Below are positions 2,893-21,194 of a stretch of DNA of 23,343 bases, piece by piece. This DNA comes from a virus (taxonomy: Duplodnaviria > Heunggongvirae > Uroviricota > Caudoviricetes): IMG/VR virus record IMGVR_UViG_2531839529_000008; one strand, written 5' to 3'. Position 1 is the first letter of the stretch. Every line of letters begins with the position of its first letter. The notes beneath the pieces were generated by a model. The model saw nothing but the letters and a program-made list of their open reading frames with translations. It made no database searches and was not told the DNA's origin. The translations under genes and the position numbers were made by a program.

Positions 2893-2975
2893 TTATCATC
2901 TCCATAAAACAAAACTCGCCGTAGCGAGTTCAGATATAATTTCCACCAAAGGCAGTAGTTGCTTGATGCTAAGAA

Positions 2976-3404
2976 TTATTCAATATCTATTCCTGTAATA
3001 TCTTTTATCTTTTTCCTTGCAAAGCCTTTTGCTAGTGATTTTGAAACACTCATAAGTGTACTAATTCCCTCATCCTTAAAGTTTGTTTTTATAGCTTGCC
3101 AGACATCCTTTTGACGTAAGTCAGCAATAAAATCATGCCCTCTTGCTGTCAACCTCAGTGGTACTTCGATCCAACTATATCCAACACCTTCCCCTAACGC
3201 TTTGGACAATATATGACCGAACCCAGGTTTTCCATCAACCCTGACTATTAATTCGTAGTCACATAATAATCGCATATGGAAAATAAAATCTTGGTCATAT
3301 CTATTAAAGCCATTATCCTCTAGTTCACTAAGCATCGTGTCAGGGCCACGAGTTTTTTCGAATGCGATAAGTAGATCTTTTAGATATTGCTGGTCTAATT
3401 TCAT
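2976..3404 (-). CDS. Hypothetical protein (142 aa), AT-rich accessory gene in the ea region
   Basis: Track ORF; GGAGG Shine-Dalgarno about 6 nt upstream of the ATG at 3404; function not recognised. Confidence 0.6.
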   Translation of the reverse strand: MKLDQQYLKDLLIAFEKTRGPDTMLSELEDNGFNRYDQDFIFHMRLLCDYELIVRVDGKPGFGHILSKALGEGVGYSWIEVPLRLTARGHDFIADLRQKDVWQAIKTNFKDEGISTLMSVSKSLAKGFARKKIKDITGIDIE

Positions 3405-3432
3405 TGCCGCCTCCGTGACATGTCACAGAGAT

Positions 3433-3771
3433 TTATATCATTAATTTTGTTTCGTGCCAGCCTTTGGTCACCCAGCATTGTGAGTCACCATTACACGGGC
3501 ATGAATTAACAGGAACTCTCTCGCCGCACTTACCGCACCGTTTTCTGCTGATCGATTTTATACGCCAGCGCACACGTGCATCATCCTGGCGGCTCAGTAA
3601 CGCGATGTACTCACCAAACTCGCAAGGCGCACGCCTGAAGCGACGCGTGGCACAGTTACGCTCCAGCATTTCAATTTCCTGAGCATCAAGTACAAGCTCC
3701 AGCTTACGCATACCGGATGATGCTTGCTTGGCTCTCTGATCGGCTTTGTGCTCTGTTGCTGATTTAGCCAT
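3433..3771 (-). CDS. Hypothetical Cys-rich putative zinc-binding protein (112 aa; alternative start at 3711 gives 92 aa)
   Basis: Track ORF; C-terminal cluster CGKCGERVPVNSCPCNGDSQC; AGGA upstream of the ATG at 3771; only 28 nt upstream of the 2976-3404 gene, suggesting one operon. Confidence 0.55.
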   Translation of the reverse strand: MAKSATEHKADQRAKQASSGMRKLELVLDAQEIEMLERNCATRRFRRAPCEFGEYIALLSRQDDARVRWRIKSISRKRCGKCGERVPVNSCPCNGDSQCWVTKGWHETKLMI

Positions 3772-3965
3772 TCTGCTTTTCCTGCATCAGGAGAAAGACA
3801 ATCATGGCGGCGCGGATACTTCCGGTATCTTTTTACGCGATATTCCCCTTCAATGGCACATACAAGAAGAGAGCCATCAACAGGAGTGATTGAGGAATCG
3901 ACAACCAGCAACGCTTAATTATCTATAGTGTCGTATTTGCTTCATAAAATATGGCGAATAACACA

Positions 3966-3998
3966 AAGCCCGCAGCAGCTCATTGTGCGGGCTTTTCT
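3966..3998. terminator. GC-rich hairpin (gcccgca...tgcgggc) with a T-rich tract on the plus side; candidate terminator bounding the 4065-4679 gene
   Basis: Inverted repeat read directly at 3968-3992 followed by ttttctta; direction ambiguous. Confidence 0.35.
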
Positions 3999-4064
3999 TA
4001 TACCTACTTCCTAGAGATAATTCTATGGAGGCATTAAATCAATACTGTCATTGGTAATATCATA

Positions 4065-4679
4065 TTATCTAAAAGTCTTTCCACTTTTAACATCTAGGTA
4101 TATTCTGTTCGACAACGTCATTCCTCCGCAATATGTGAAATAGATGTTTTCACCCTTATTGCTTGATGCCATCCACCCTCCGATTTCCTTAAAATCGCTT
4201 TCCGTGCAGACCCCTTCATTTATTAACTTCCTAGCTGCCGAAGAAAACTCTTTTTTGTATATACGGTAGTCATCAGATCCTTTGATTAAAGTATCATCTC
4301 CGCTCGCATTTTCAGCAGGATCTGATGGCCTTTCACTGCTAAGATCACTAAGTTTAACCCATTCTGAAAACTTGCCATTAACGATTCCATTTTTTCTTGT
4401 GCAGGATTTATTACCTTCTTTAATATATTCGCTTTCCCCTCCAACACATGAGGCTGAATATGGCTCAGTTATACGAACCCATTCACCTTTTTTTTCTAGA
4501 AAATCTACGCCTTCCCTGAAAAATAGTTTCCCAGCCACTCCACATTTACTTGAAGGGCAGGTATGTCTTTCCGTTCGATCAACAACAACCCATAGTTTTG
4601 ATTCATTTTTTGCCATTGCCGATGGTATTTGAGATGAGACAATTAACGTAAGCCCTAAAATTAGTATTGATTTTTTCAT
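4065..4679 (-). CDS. Secreted or periplasmic Cys-rich protein of unknown function (204 aa)
   Basis: Track ORF; N-terminal signal peptide MKKSILILGLTLIVSSQIPSAMA with AMA-K cleavage motif; six Cys in the mature part; AAGGA Shine-Dalgarno 8 nt upstream; AT-rich. Confidence 0.65.
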   Translation of the reverse strand: MKKSILILGLTLIVSSQIPSAMAKNESKLWVVVDRTERHTCPSSKCGVAGKLFFREGVDFLEKKGEWVRITEPYSASCVGGESEYIKEGNKSCTRKNGIVNGKFSEWVKLSDLSSERPSDPAENASGDDTLIKGSDDYRIYKKEFSSAARKLINEGVCTESDFKEIGGWMASSNKGENIYFTYCGGMTLSNRIYLDVKSGKTFR

Positions 4680-4977
4680 TGTAATTTCCTTTTACTTTTT
4701 ACAAAGCGTTTAATCATGGCTGATTATCTCTAAGTGTAGTAACAGCCTTGTGCGAAACATGTTACCAAATCGCCATTTCAGTGTATCCGCAGTTAGGCTG
4801 CCACTTCAAGGATTCCTAATTACATGGTACGTAAGCGTAAAATCCCGTTGGTTGGCGGGTAATAACTCTGATCAAATCTCCCTTGTCTTTTGCTCTTACG
4901 TATGCAGCTCTTGTGTATTCAACCCAGGCCTCCAGTTCAGCAATACGCTTACTTCCATCCGAGATAACACCTTCTAC

Positions 4978-8163: not shown

Positions 8164-8296
8164 TTTTTGGGACTCCTGGCTGATTAAGTATGTCGATAAG
8201 GCGTTTCCATCCGTCACGTAATTTACGGGTGATTCGTTCAAGTAAAGATTCGGAAGGGCAGCCAGCAACAGGCCACCCTGCAATGGCATATTGCAT
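8132..8296 (-). CDS. cIII: CIII, FtsH protease inhibitor, 54 aa
   Basis: Hand translation from the ATG at 8296 begins MQYA and ends ...GYPD with TAA at 8132-8134, in a different frame from kil; below the track cutoff. Confidence 0.8.
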   Translation of the reverse strand: MQYAIAGWPVAGCPSESLLERITRKLRDGWKRLIDILNQPGVPKNGSNTYGYPD

Positions 8297-8368
8297 GGTG
8301 TGCTCCTTATTTATACATAACGAAAAACGCCTCGAGTGAAGCGTTATTGGTATGCGGTAACGCCGCGC

Positions 8369-13917: not shown

Positions 13918-15564
<1,647 letters not shown>

Positions 15565-15690
15565 TATGGCACCTGTGTTGTTCTGAGGTGAGCATATCAC
15601 CTCTGTTCAGGTGGCCAAATTCAGTAAACCACAACATACCGTATCCAAAGCGGCATTGATGGCGATCGGGCAGGGCGTCAGGAGGGCGGC

Positions 15691-16780: not shown

Positions 16781-16917
16781 TGTTTGAGTTTAATATGGCA
16801 GAACTTCTTCGCCACCGCTGGGGGCGTCTGCGCTTATATCGTTTCCCCGGTTCTGTTTTGACCGATTACCGAATACTGAAGAATTACGCCAAAACACTGA
16901 CAGGAGCAGGAGTATGA
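16777..16917 (+). CDS. ylcG: YlcG-like small protein (46 aa)
   Basis: Hand translation [46 protein letters not shown]; start overlaps the rusA stop. Confidence 0.5.
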
Positions 16918-17002
16918 AGTCAGAGATAACAATCAACTAATACTGTTTTGTTGATTTTTGCTTGTAATTGGCGTTCTGGTCTGAGTTTTGTGGAGTAAGT
17001 TG

Positions 17003-17380
17003 ATGCGTGATATTCAGATGGTTCTTGAGCGTTGGGGAGCGTGGGCGGCTAATAATCATGAAGATGTGACCTGGTCGTCCATTGCCGCCGGTTTTAAGGG
17101 ATTAATTCCTTCAAAAGTAAAATCTCGCCCACAATGTTGTGACGATGACGCGATGATCATTTGCGGGTGCATGGCCCGTCTGAAAAAGAACAACAGCGAT
17201 TTGCATGATTTATTGGTGGACTATTATGTCGGCGGCATGACTTTTATGGCGCTTGCACGTAAGCATGGGCGATCTGATTGTTGGGTTGGCAGGATGCTTC
17301 AGAAAGCTGAGGGCGTAGTGGAGGGTATGCTGATGGTGTTGGATCTCCGATTGGAGATGGATGCTGATTGTTCGAAATAA
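17003..17380 (+). CDS. Q: Late-gene antiterminator Q, phage 82 / DLP12 QuuD type
   Basis: Track ORF 16988-17380 with likely start [18 protein letters not shown]; recognised as QuuD-like. Confidence 0.85.
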
Positions 17381-17479
17381 TTAAAGGAAAAGTTGCTGTC
17401 TGATTGTCATTAGTCTAACATTTTAAATGTTGGAATCACAACGTAGTTATTATCATATAACAGCTTGTTTCCTGATTTA
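17381..17479 (+). promoter_or_regulatory. Inferred PR'/qut late promoter region between Q and the downstream hairpin
   Basis: Position only, by analogy with lambdoid late regulation; promoter hexamers not confidently assigned. Confidence 0.3.
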
Positions 17480-17508
17480 GCCAGCCTCCCCAAAGGCTGG
17501 TTTTTTTC
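17480..17508 (+). terminator. Rho-independent terminator (tR'-like) downstream of Q
   Basis: Hairpin ccagcc-tccccaaa-ggctgg followed by TTTTTTT (17501-17507). Confidence 0.7.
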
Positions 17509-17535
17509 TAATAAGTATTATTTCGGGTAGGGATT

Positions 17536-18060
17536 TTATTGTTTAACCCATAATAATTCATTGACATTGAATCCCAACTTTTGAGCGGTTCGCACATAGT
17601 CTGCTTTTACTTTATCTGGAATAGTTGGGGTCCTTGCCAGAATCCATAGGTATTCTCTGTTCGGACCACTGACAAGAGCATACTTATACTCATCATCCAG
17701 TTTGATTACATTATAGCCACCATAGAAGGGGCCAAAAAACGAAACCTTCAATGCTGCAGTTTTAGTATCTCCAGTAAAGTATGCTTTACCTTCGCTCTCG
17801 CTCCATTTATTTTTCGTTGGATCGTATCCACGGTTAAGTACACGAATCCCTCCGTCGTTCCGTTTTCCATAAGTAGCGCTGACCTGTTCCAGACCACGTT
17901 CGAACCGGTTCTCGAGGCGAGCTATTTCATACCATTTTCCGAGGTAGCGGTTGGCGTCAAAATTTGTAATCGGCTGCACACCTTTAGGTGGTGTCGGGGC
18001 CTTACATGCTATAAGAGTGAAAGAGAGTGCAATGCCAGTCAACACAGGCCATAACTTCAT
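17536..18060 (-). CDS. Blc-like bacterial lipocalin, outer-membrane lipoprotein (174 aa)
   Basis: Track ORF; lipobox LIAC; lipocalin motifs (NFDANRYLGKWYEIAR, TAALKVSFFGPFYGGYNVI) recognised as a paralogue of E. coli Blc; transcribed opposite to late genes. Confidence 0.85.
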   Translation of the reverse strand: MKLWPVLTGIALSFTLIACKAPTPPKGVQPITNFDANRYLGKWYEIARLENRFERGLEQVSATYGKRNDGGIRVLNRGYDPTKNKWSESEGKAYFTGDTKTAALKVSFFGPFYGGYNVIKLDDEYKYALVSGPNREYLWILARTPTIPDKVKADYVRTAQKLGFNVNELLWVKQ

Positions 18061-18252
18061 AATAAATCCTGTACTTTTGATAGTTGAGAGTAAGTATGAA
18101 AGATAGATGATTACGACCGATCACTTAAAGAACTTTCATACTATATTAGGAATAGTCCATAACAGAAAAATTGTCAGTGATGACGCCAGAAAGGCAATTT
18201 ATTCCGTGCACTACACAGTTTATGTGTTAATGAATTAGTCAAGGGGGAGAAT

Positions 18253-19212
18253 ATGATAAAAAAACCTGTGATTGGAATCAGCGGTTGTTTGGCCGGTTCT
18301 GCTGTTCGTTTTGATGGTGGTCACAAAAGAGCTGACTTTTTAATGGACAAATTAGTGGAATGGGTAACATTCAGACCAGTATGTCCGGAAATGGCTATAG
18401 GGCTGCCAGTTCCGCGTCCTGCTCTACGTCTTGTGCGCTCGATGCAAGGAAATATACGGATGTGTTTCAGCCACGACCAGAATGAGGATGTGACAGAGAG
18501 AATGACAGAGTTTAGTCGTTCTTATATGGACAAATTAAAGGATGTATCGGGGTTTGTGGTTTGTGCTAAATCTCCCAGCTGTGGCATGGAGCGCGTGCGT
18601 GTCTATGATGAAAATGGTAATCGAGGTCGTAAAGATGGAGTGGGACTATTTACGAGCACTTTGATGGAAAAGTTTTCCTGGCTACCGGTTGAAGAGGATG
18701 GGCGATTACATGATCCAGTGCTTCGTGAGAATTTTGTTGAAAGAGTTTTTGCTTTGCATGAGCTCAATCACCTTTACAAGGAGAAATTATCAAGAAGAGA
18801 GTTATTAGCTTTTCATAGTCGTTATAAGCTTCAGTTGTTGGCGCATAGTCAGGCAGGCTATAAAGATATGGGACCATTTGTGGCTGCAATACACGAGTGG
18901 GCGGACCTTGAATCATACTTTGAGGTGTATCGTGATAAGCTGATGGCGATTCTCAGAAAACCTGCATCACGTAAAAATCACACGAATGTGCTGATGCATA
19001 TACAGGGGTATTTTAGTAACTACTTAAGTACACGCCAGCGTAAAGAGTTGAGCGAGGTTATACTTAACTATCGTTCTGGCACATTACCTCTTCTTGCGCC
19101 GTTGACTCTGCTGAAGCATTATCTGGGTGAGTATCCTAATGATTACTTGCTTACACAGAATTACTTCGATCCCTATCCGGACGAACTGGCTCTAAGACTG
19201 ATGGTAAATTAA
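18253..19212 (+). CDS. DUF523 (TudS-like Fe-S desulfidase) fused to DUF1722, 319 aa; RudS/YbgA-like
   Basis: Track ORF with strong Shine-Dalgarno (AAGGGGGAGAATATG); conserved Cys residues in the N-terminal half (GISGCLAG, VCPEM, SPSCGME); domain call from memory. Confidence 0.7.
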   Translation: MIKKPVIGISGCLAGSAVRFDGGHKRADFLMDKLVEWVTFRPVCPEMAIGLPVPRPALRLVRSMQGNIRMCFSHDQNEDVTERMTEFSRSYMDKLKDVSGFVVCAKSPSCGMERVRVYDENGNRGRKDGVGLFTSTLMEKFSWLPVEEDGRLHDPVLRENFVERVFALHELNHLYKEKLSRRELLAFHSRYKLQLLAHSQAGYKDMGPFVAAIHEWADLESYFEVYRDKLMAILRKPASRKNHTNVLMHIQGYFSNYLSTRQRKELSEVILNYRSGTLPLLAPLTLLKHYLGEYPNDYLLTQNYFDPYPDELALRLMVN

Positions 19213-19563
19213 TTGTATGCGATATCATCCAAAAGGATGAGTTCCTGCATGCAGGATATTTACAATCGTAAAAACTACACTATGATACCCAGAGTGTCAG
19301 TTTGTATAAAAACTCTGTTTACGCTGAAGAAACAATTGAGATGCAACTTAAAGTTGGTAAACATGCCAGTCAAAATATATAATATTATGATTCCACGCAG
19401 CTATATATAATATAACAGATTGGTTTAATAATTTGTCTTTGTGAGTTAAATACATAATTTTATACTTGTGATGTAATGAAATTTTCCTTATTGTTGAACT
19501 GGCGAATATTGATTTTCCACCTATACTTACCTGGTGTAACCCCAATGATATCAGGTGGATAAT

Positions 19564-20294
19564 ATGCCATACATATGTTCTATCATTTTGGTGTTGAATT
19601 CGTTTGATGTCCGAATTGGTAAAGAAGATATTTTGTTTAAAAAAGGAAATGCTGTTCTCATTGATTACAATTTAAAAGATTTTTTTCATCAAATATAGAT
19701 CATGTAATGATCGTAGATGTTGAAGAAAAAACAGTTAATGATTTCTTTAAAAGCAACACACTCTCACCTTTTTCTGTAAGAAGGTTTTATCCGGCATACT
19801 TGATGGTGGAATGTGAAGATTTTTCATTGTTAAAGAACTTGATTGCATGCTTGAATTGTGATGGCAGAACTGTGGATTTTGTTAGAAATCAAATATCACT
19901 TGCATGTCTTGCTATCTTATCTTCAGAGAAAATAGTGCAAAGTTTTTTATTTGGATGTCTTAATAGTTTAGGAAGTAAAGTTAAGGCTATTATTCACACG
20001 GATATATCTGCAGCATGGAGACTTTGTGATATATCTTCAAGACTGTATCTGAGTGAAAGTCTGTTAAAAAGAAAATTAAAGCACGAAGGCTTATCATTTA
20101 GTAAGTTAATTCTTGAAGAGCGAATGGTGATGGCGGAAAGCTTATTAAGCTACAATTTATATTCTGTTGGAAAAGTTGCTGAGATATGCGGTTATGAAAA
20201 CACGTCATATTTTGTAAGTGTTTTCAGAAGGTATTTTGGTGTTCCTCCCCATCAATATTCATCAAGATTTTTTTTAGAAAAAGACATGATGTAA
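19564..20294 (+). pseudogene. AppY-like AraC-family transcriptional regulator, disrupted: 44-codon N-terminal fragment (19564-19698) then a 195-aa C-terminal ORF (19707-20294) in another frame
   Basis: C-terminal AraC-type HTH (GYENTSYFVSVFRRYFGVPPHQY); N-terminal fragment MPYICSIILVLNSFDVRIGKEDILFKKGNAVLI resembles the AppY N-terminus; stops in all three frames at 19696-19712; very AT-rich. Confidence 0.6.
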
Positions 20295-20481
20295 CGTGAT
20301 GCGTTTTAATGATTTTGTAATTTTCGTATTTGATAATTGTATGATGCTTTCAGCTACGCCAGAATAATCGCGGCGTTTTTCTTTTTGAATAGATGTTCAA
20401 GCCTTACGCTAATGTAACTTCTATACCTTTCCTCTTCGTTCCGAACCGTGTACACCATCCGTTATTTGCGGAGGTGAGGCT

Positions 20482-20697
20482 ATGAAATCCATGGATAAGT
20501 TAACAACGGGCATTGCCTACGGCACCTCCGCAGGCAGTGCTGGCTACTGGTTTTTACAGCTGCTCGATAAAGTCACGCCCTCACAGTGGGCAGCAATAGG
20601 TGTGCTGGGTAGCTTGGTATTTGGCCTGCTGACGTACCTGACAAACCTTTATTTCAAGATTAAAGAAGATAAGCGCAAGGCTGCGAGAGGTGAATAA
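20482..20697 (+). CDS. essD: Class II holin (pinholin), phage 21 S / DLP12 EssD type, with dual-start motif MKSM
   Basis: 71-aa track ORF recognised as S21-like; Met1-Lys-Ser-Met4 dual start. Confidence 0.9.
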
Positions 20698-21194
20698 TGC
20701 CTCCATCATTACGAAAAGCCGTTGCTGCTGCTATTGGTGGCGGAGCAATTGCTATAGCATCAGTGTTAATTACTGGCCCAAGTGGTAACGATGGTCTGGA
20801 AGGTGTCAGCTACATACCATACAAAGATATTGTTGGTGTATGGACTGTATGTCACGGGCATACAGGAAAAGACATCATACTCGGTAAAACGTATACCAAA
20901 GCAGAATGCAAAACACTCTTGAATAAAGACCTTGCCACGGTCGCCAGACAAATTAACCCGTACATCAAAGTCGATATACCGGAAACAACGCGCGGCGCTC
21001 TTTACTCGTTCGTCTATAACGTGGGCGCAGGCAATTTCAGAACATCTACTCTTCTTCGCAAAATAAACCAGGGCGATATCAAGGGCGCATGTGACCAGCT
21101 ACGTCGCTGGGCATACGCTGGCGGTAAGCAATGGAAAGGCCTGATGACTCGTCGTGAGATTGAGCGTGAGGTCTGTTTGTGGGGGCAACAATGA
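20697..21194 (+). CDS. rrrD: SAR endolysin (phage lysozyme), R21 / RrrD type
   Basis: 165-aa track ORF; N-terminal Gly/Ala-rich signal-arrest-release segment ([18 protein letters not shown]); start overlaps the holin stop. Confidence 0.9.

Follow-up and report, generated by a model that had tools for sequence, protein, structure and literature searches.

Positions 19213-20294 of the viral sequence IMGVR_UViG_2531839529_000008 carry an AraC-type regulator gene that is divided between two reading frames, and the question raised by this arrangement is what product, if any, such a gene still yields. The whole stretch of DNA that was analysed, referred to below as the window, is 23,343 nucleotides long. 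A preliminary description of the locus had left the choice between a pseudogene and an N-terminally truncated regulator. To these may be added the possibilities that full-length protein is recovered from the split gene by recoding, that the interruption is one state of a reversible switch, and that it is an error of sequencing or assembly.

The window covers the left-hand portion of a lambdoid prophage that has integrated next to ybhC, and it begins with an integrase gene. The regulator gene is a horizontally acquired moron gene situated between the antiterminator gene Q and the holin gene (Table 1). The interval between Q and the lysis genes is where stx is found in Stx phages and nmpC in DLP12. 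In the window this interval also holds lipocalin and YbgA-family genes, and the same blc, ybgA and AraC trio is present in phages IdasGreatGrand and Lambda_2G7a. The proposal of horizontal acquisition made in the preliminary description is borne out by this location and by base composition: GC ranges between 26.5 and 33.5% in 19200-19600 and between 29 and 34.5% in the regulator gene, against 40-50% in the flanking genes, so the upstream region is indeed as AT-rich as had been stated. This composition would be compatible with the proposed silencing by H-NS. An Rfam scan of the whole window gave one match only, to Lambda_thermo (the lambda cIII thermoregulator), which confirms a lambda-type early-left region in the prophage; there was none in or near 19213-20294. 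A scan of 16900-20700 found a single terminator-like hairpin, about 100 nt downstream of Q, which is plausibly the tR'-type terminator of the late operon; if so, Q-mediated antitermination would carry transcription on into the cargo genes. Elsewhere in the window, an IS3-type insertion sequence constitutes the ~1.25 kb (5%) that is missing from the otherwise 100%-identical prophages of strains 025542-1 and ESBLEC_MG48. In strain 504838 (NZ_CP025856.1, locus 2950-4803) the same prophage has shrunk to a remnant, with a truncated integrase gene and ISEc52 directly upstream of ybgA, and IS66 after the lysis genes. The regulator pseudogene thus persists even in heavily decayed prophages.

Table 1. 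Positions of the features discussed, numbered from the first nucleotide of the window
Feature	Position	Strand	Remarks
Rfam Lambda_thermo match	8251-8309	-	88.5 bits, E 1e-20
IS3-type insertion sequence	~14400-15640	-	ORFs 14417-15235 (rve integrase core) and 15262-15600 (HTH_Tnp_1)
Antiterminator Q gene	16988-17380		
Terminator-like hairpin	17479-17502	+	
Lipocalin (Blc-like) gene	17536-18060	-	
ybgA-like gene	18253-19212		319-aa YbgA-family protein (2-thiouracil desulfurase domain DUF523 + DUF1722)
AT-rich intergenic/promoter region	19213-19563	+	GC 26.5-33.5%
N-terminal fragment of regulator gene	19564-19698	+	44 codons and TAG stop; in a different frame from the C-terminal ORF
C-terminal reading frame of regulator gene	19665-20294	+	Open from 19665; first ATG at 19707
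Poly-T tract, T7	19680-19686	+	Site of the 1-bp deletion; U_UUU_UUU in the N-terminal frame
AraC-type double helix-turn-helix domain	20034-20264	+	Pfam HTH_18; residues 110-186 of the 195-aa ORF
P21-type holin gene	20482-20697		
Lysozyme gene	20697-21194		

Position 19213 is the base immediately after the stop codon of the ybgA-like gene. The regulator gene proper begins at ATG 19564, which is preceded by a Shine-Dalgarno sequence, AGGTGGA, at 19553-19559; the short ORF also has a GTG at 19555, and ATG 19564 is the likely start. Sigma-70-like sites that match at 10 of 12 positions occur at 19259-19286 and 19354-19383, but promoter-like sites in the upstream region as a whole are no commoner than in shuffled sequences (13 versus 11.1 +/- 3.5), so no promoter is claimed. 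In an allele group 85% identical to that of the window, similarity to the window starts only at 19469. A small ORF at 19213/19237-19410, labelled 'hypothetical' in IdasGreatGrand, was judged spurious: it is absent from the PGAP annotation, and the 85% allele group lacks this region.

That a matching N-terminus lies upstream, in another frame, is correct as first described. Residues 1-41 of the N-terminal fragment (MPYICS...KDFF) are native and match the N-terminus of intact 243-residue homologues, and its last three residues (HQI) are out of frame. The fragment and the C-terminal frame overlap by 34 nt (19665-19698), and the T tract lies inside the overlap. Counted from its first ATG, the C-terminal ORF (19707-20294) specifies 195 residues, which correspond to residues 49-243 of the intact protein. 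The stop codons in this neighbourhood had been taken to close all three frames at 19696-19712, which is not the case: those at 19696 (TAG), 19705 (TAA), 19708 (TGA) and 19714 (TAG) all belong to the frame of the N-terminal ORF, and the C-terminal frame runs open through them.

The cause of the division became clear from comparison with close relatives. Alignment with the corresponding genes of Escherichia phage IdasGreatGrand (98.3% identical) and of Lambda_2G7a (85%) revealed exactly one indel, in the poly-T tract, which is T7 in the window and T8 in IdasGreatGrand. Alleles with T8 are continuous ORFs of 243 codons; Lambda_2G7a, whose tract is interrupted (TTTTCTTTT), likewise has a continuous ORF. 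Insertion of one T into the window sequence gives a protein of 243 residues that is 98.4% identical to protein cluster P0001. Positions 19564-20294 therefore represent a 243-codon gene of the AraC/XylS family broken by a 1-bp deletion in the tract. With a continuous ORF in close relatives, an indel here and a reproducible interruption, it is a frameshift pseudogene, in keeping with one of the two alternatives first offered. It is an ordinary one and not new, having already been flagged by public annotation: the equivalent of 19564-20294 in 504838, identical in sequence, is entered by PGAP in RefSeq as a "frameshifted" helix-turn-helix pseudogene, and other T7 genomes in RefSeq carry the same flag.

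Loss of a single nucleotide from an eight-nucleotide homopolymer is a typical long-read error, and some T6 calls at this tract may be errors of that kind, which raises the question of whether the gene is really intact and its tract merely under-called. This is extremely unlikely. Four complete genomes are 100% identical to the window over 19213-20294, and two genomes (025542-1 and ESBLEC_MG48) match 95% of the window's full length at 100% identity. T7 on the same haplotype recurs in genomes sequenced independently in different laboratories, and it follows haplotype instead of being scattered at random. Because the same state is reproduced in independent assemblies, the T7 deletion is heritable and not a read error. 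Resequencing had been proposed at the outset, in case a single continuous ORF should emerge; such an ORF is indeed present in roughly half of the E. coli genomes with this allele group, but the reproducibility of T7 makes it unlikely that resequencing would close the break in the window.

The presence of an AraC-type DNA-binding domain in the C-terminal ORF was confirmed by Pfam, in which the 195-residue sequence matches HTH_18 (E 2.3e-14, 53.8 bits, cut-off 33.6) and HTH_AraC (E 9.7e-12, 45.2 bits, cut-off 26.6). The C-terminal domain that characterises the AraC/XylS family, some 100 residues long and containing a pair of helix-turn-helix motifs, is accordingly present; the single two-domain polypeptide is not found in the window, where the T7 deletion splits the N-terminal domain over two frames. 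The closest relative of solved structure is the C-terminal domain of GadX, 3mkl (E 3.9e-20; Foldseek TM 0.86-0.89, rmsd 1.6-1.9). Modelled with AlphaFold (mean pLDDT 85), an intact homologue has two domains, of which the N-terminal is beta-rich, with strands at 3-10, 14-18, 21-25, 30-34, 48-54 and 79-82, and the C-terminal half is helical. Foldseek matches this model over its full length to CsvR, Rns and ToxT with E values of 1e-10 to 1e-7.

The alignment to AppY, EnvY and GadX suggested in the preliminary description was carried out with the restored protein. In BLASTP it matches GadW (33% identity, residues 1-233), YdeO (32%, 1-236) and AppY (31%, 1-232) end to end, GadX over the DNA-binding domain only (41%), and EnvY (29%) and YbcM (23%) only in part. 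The label 'AppY-like' thus holds as far as membership of the AppY group goes, but not as a specific kinship with AppY, which at 31% is no nearer than GadW or YdeO and well behind the probable PatE protein (53%). Three equivalences were considered and rejected. The best NCBIfam model is that of YdeO (NF007407), matched over its full length with 123.4 bits against a cut-off of 348, and the GadX model (NF007432) scores 82.3 bits against 500; both are far below the curated cut-offs. AppY itself is excluded as an orthologue by an identity on a par with that of GadW and YdeO, and by a locus that is not the appY-ompT-envY region. The intact product is a 243-residue, two-domain regulator of the AraC/XylS family, in the GadW/YdeO/AppY/PatE subgroup, and judged by its sequence it is orthologous to none of the named regulators of K-12. 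Closest among its distinct relatives are the 247-residue proteins of clusters P0017 and P0018 (53% identity over 235 residues), and phrog_1450, which has no assigned function, takes in both these and the restored protein. The family occurs in viable lambdoid phages (IdasGreatGrand, the Lambda_2E9 group, mEp332, PhiR70_1 and ev099), and, of 5426 complete E. coli genomes, about 1081 contain the 243-residue regulator family.

The explanation preferred here, and held to be very probable, is that a regulator carried as a moron by the prophage was inactivated by replication slippage from T8 to T7, and that the present allele gives at most traces of active product. Slippage would have removed one T from the tract that now occupies 19680-19686. 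Ribosomes starting at ATG 19564 would then leave the native frame after codon 41 and halt at TAG 19696, and the remaining 195 codons would have no ribosome-binding site of their own. Judged by the AlphaFold model, the N-terminal domain of a 195-codon product would lack four (3-10, 14-18, 21-25 and 30-34) of its six beta-strands. Loss of function at the T7 locus is the probable outcome. By analogy with PatE, PsrB and AppY, for which this is reported, the intact protein would activate AT-rich host promoters repressed by H-NS, for example those of acid-resistance genes. Among the observations that speak against a pseudogene is that the DNA-binding domain has remained complete and shows no additional lesion; this means either that the deletion is recent or that the remainder of the gene is still under some constraint.

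An intact DNA-binding domain would equally suit an N-truncated regulator, confined to DNA binding or constitutively active, which is translated by reinitiation at ATG 19707. This codon lies 8 nt past the TAG that ends the upstream ORF, within a TAATG motif, and termination followed by reinitiation could furnish some 195-residue product. The isolated C-terminal domain of GadX is a stable fold (3mkl), and gene finders predict proteins of the 195-residue cluster in many assemblies. However, no Shine-Dalgarno motif is seen in the 20 nt before ATG 19707 (CATCAAATATAGATCATGTA), the piece of N-terminal domain deprived of strands 1-4 would probably misfold, and PGAP calls the locus a pseudogene. Nor is the proposed start conserved: position 49 is V, I or K in distant homologues, and the N-terminal 48 residues are retained in each of the 13 homologues aligned, among which M1, C5, S6, I8, K20, G28 and F41 are invariant. 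Homologues beginning naturally at the downstream Met, which the preliminary description had envisaged, were therefore looked for among these 13 and none was found. That the 195-residue ORF is a working regulator is considered very unlikely.

The prevalence of the lesion was assessed in complete E. coli genomes, about 534 of which carry the allele group of the window. Exact matches of a 75-nt segment centred on the tract number 243 for T8 and 239 for T7; a further 13 genomes have T6, and the T9 form of the segment has no exact match in any complete E. coli genome. In the protein database the 243-residue cluster has 1131 member sequences and the 195-residue cluster 623. Comparison of 10 loci showed that T7 has three or more haplotype backgrounds, and that T8 relatives exist for every one of them. 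The first is that of the window, 504838 and WCHEC035125, with 19474T, 19599T and 19727A. The second is shared by RIVM_C037166 and WP3-W18, which have 19231C, 19635A, 19668A and 19705C in common and whose nearest sampled relative, LR-28, is T8. The third is represented by EM10-18-28, which has 19878G, 20042G, 20105A and 20285A like the T8 phage IdasGreatGrand. All four combinations of tract state with the SNP at 19727, 40 nt from the tract, exist, exact matches being found for T7 with G in 25 genomes and for T8 with A in 50. The occurrence of T7 on at least three backgrounds marks the tract as a recurrent slippage hotspot, and the presence of T6 without T9 indicates a one-way drift towards shorter tracts, with the caveat that long reads may have under-called the homopolymer in some isolated T7 and T6 cases. 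The simplest reading is that several independent deletions have converted T8 into T7; reversion is not needed.

It is tempting to see in these figures a phase-variable contingency gene, which slipped-strand mispairing would flip back and forth between an on state (T8) and an off state (T7), so that populations would contain cells of both kinds. Tract-length polymorphism among closely related strains, which a contingency locus would be expected to show, is indeed present: the two states are nearly equal in number with T6 in addition, T7 has T8 relatives on each of its backgrounds, and every combination with the neighbouring SNP is found. Repeated deletion suffices to explain all of this, though, and no step from T7 to T8 is required. 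The lack of T9 means that changes run only towards shorter tracts; most T7 genomes look like a single successful lineage of one haplotype; and part of the T7 and T6 calls may be sequencing under-calls, as noted above. Sister allele groups have an interrupted tract (TTTTCTTTT) together with a continuous ORF. A T8 version of the exact haplotype of the window was sought and not found, the best T8 allele being 99.5% identical, so there is no sign of recent switching on that haplotype. Eight T residues are, moreover, short for high-rate switching in mismatch-repair-proficient E. coli. Reversible phase variation is therefore regarded as quite unlikely.

The regulator gene is also damaged in other ways elsewhere. 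In a T7 sub-lineage (for example NZ_CP032426.1, 3316640-3318498) an IS1 lies inside the equivalent of 19213-20294 and splits the match in two, and in RIVM_C037166 the regulator gene has a second frameshift in addition to the first. The IS1 insertions are a further sign of a dispensable locus. There is also a second homopolymer-rich stretch, T8 followed by A5, at the 3' end of the regulator gene (20268-20285); single-base deletions there in ET474, LR-28 and RIVM_C037166 alter the last few codons, and the resulting 241-residue variants of ET474 and LR-28 are annotated as intact by PGAP. The overall picture is of a dispensable accessory gene in the course of decay, with its weakest point at the T8 tract.

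The sequence of the tract prompts consideration of whether full-length regulator might nevertheless be obtained from T7, either by -1 ribosomal frameshifting or by RNA polymerase adding one U, which would have the same effect as a -1 slip. The geometry is suitable, with the tract in the 34-nt overlap of the two frames. The upstream frame reads GAU UUU UUU CAU, and 19680-19686 is a perfect X_XXY_YYZ heptamer; after a -1 slip the message would be read UCA UCA AAU AUA GAU CAU GUA AUG, giving DFFSSNIDHVM, which is the native sequence; the stretch that results from the shift, ...KDFFSSNIDHVM..., is identical to the intact protein. A precedent is provided by mxiE, together with the rescue of frameshift mutations by slippage (PMC1088944). 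Since T7 is a perfect -1 slippery heptamer and a -1 shift restores the native protein, the allele may be leaky and not null. Against any dedicated mechanism, the split layout is not conserved, the T8 form and all more distant homologues being continuous ORFs; no stimulatory structure was detected downstream of the tract (MFE -11.3 kcal/mol, z -0.56), and no Shine-Dalgarno-like element was seen upstream of it. Documented functional slippage sites are runs of 9A or 9T, or of 8A in a few organisms, and selection against slippage-prone A/T runs in coding sequence is evident at about 9 nt in many bacterial genomes (PMC1088944); T7 falls below these lengths. A short run, no stimulator and a split that is not conserved lead to the expectation that restored protein would amount to a few percent at most, as adventitious leakiness. 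The locus lacks the features of a programmed recoding site of the mxiE or dnaX type: homologues are continuous, the sister tract is interrupted, the run is only T7 and the z score is -0.56. Programmed recoding is not plausible, and production of the full-length regulator by recoding is rated as highly improbable; leakiness of the T7 allele at trace level is plausible from the sequence.

The case for inactivation by slippage having been set out, its significance is modest. The T7 locus itself matters little, being a decayed accessory regulator in a lambdoid prophage that has already been flagged automatically. The family of the intact allele is common and has among its relatives PatE, AppY and GadW, regulators that reprogramme acid resistance, and by this analogy the intact allele may influence host physiology. 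Nearly half of the carriers of the allele group have lost the regulator through the same homopolymer slip, on several backgrounds. Such recurrent loss may reflect a neutral mutational hotspot, or it may hint at an advantage in some successful clinical lineages. It is conceivable, though considered unlikely, that the T8 tract serves as a functional mutational switch of a prophage regulator of the acid-stress or virulence type. Lineages would then repeatedly turn the regulator off by slipping from T8 to T7, and the 'off' state would stay leaky or revertible because the tract is a perfect U_UUU_UUU heptamer for -1 frameshifting and a site of RNA polymerase slippage, as in mxiE; a regulator acquired by horizontal transfer could in this way be tuned heritably and by degrees. 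Mild interest attaches only to the repeated slippage and to the geometry reminiscent of mxiE.

Among known systems, the solved two-domain AraC virulence regulators Rns, CsvR and ToxT resemble the regulator in overall plan. The model matches them over about 245-250 columns and their type gives sequence matches down to E 6e-17 in the C-terminal half; identity is 17-20%, and TM is only about 0.42 because the orientation of the domains differs. AppY, which is carried by the DLP12 prophage, is likewise prophage-encoded, but the restored protein is no closer to it than to GadW or YdeO, which makes 'AppY-like' an arbitrary choice of name. AppY has been reported to be regulated by H-NS (PMC10057817). 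PsrA and PsrB (z1789 and z2104) are described as AraC/XylS regulators of secretion encoded by EHEC prophages, acting through GadE, YhiF and hdeA (PMC10877973, PMC8565820); they resemble the present regulator in family and in carriage by a prophage.

In mxiE of Shigella flexneri, transcriptional slippage at a run of T joins two overlapping ORFs, and an AraC-family activator is the product (PMC1088944). As at the present locus, a short upstream and a long downstream ORF overlap at the run, and one additional nucleotide fuses them. Unlike mxiE, however, the run here is T7, under the approximately 9 nt (eight in a few organisms) for which slippage is documented (PMC1088944), and the division into two ORFs is not conserved: in E. 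coli half of the copies are continuous, as is every other homologue. The resemblance to mxiE is one of geometry only.

A further comparison is with PatE (z0321, OI-8/CP-933H) of EHEC O157:H7, a prophage AraC-like activator described as acting on gadE, gadBC and hdeAB (PMC10877973). The gene of clusters P0017 and P0018 occurs once per O157:H7 genome, near 313 kb, where it adjoins yagQ-type genes at one end of a defective lambdoid prophage. This fits the published location of patE (PMC10877973), and P0018 is, from position alone, probably PatE. The regulator of the window shares with PatE its carriage by a prophage, its AraC-like character, a length of about 245 residues and the same layout of two domains. 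At 53% identity to the probable PatE it belongs to a paralogous lineage and is not the orthologue. The two also differ in their place in the prophage, PatE being at the prophage end and the gene of the window between Q and holin, and the copy in the window, unlike PatE, is frameshifted.
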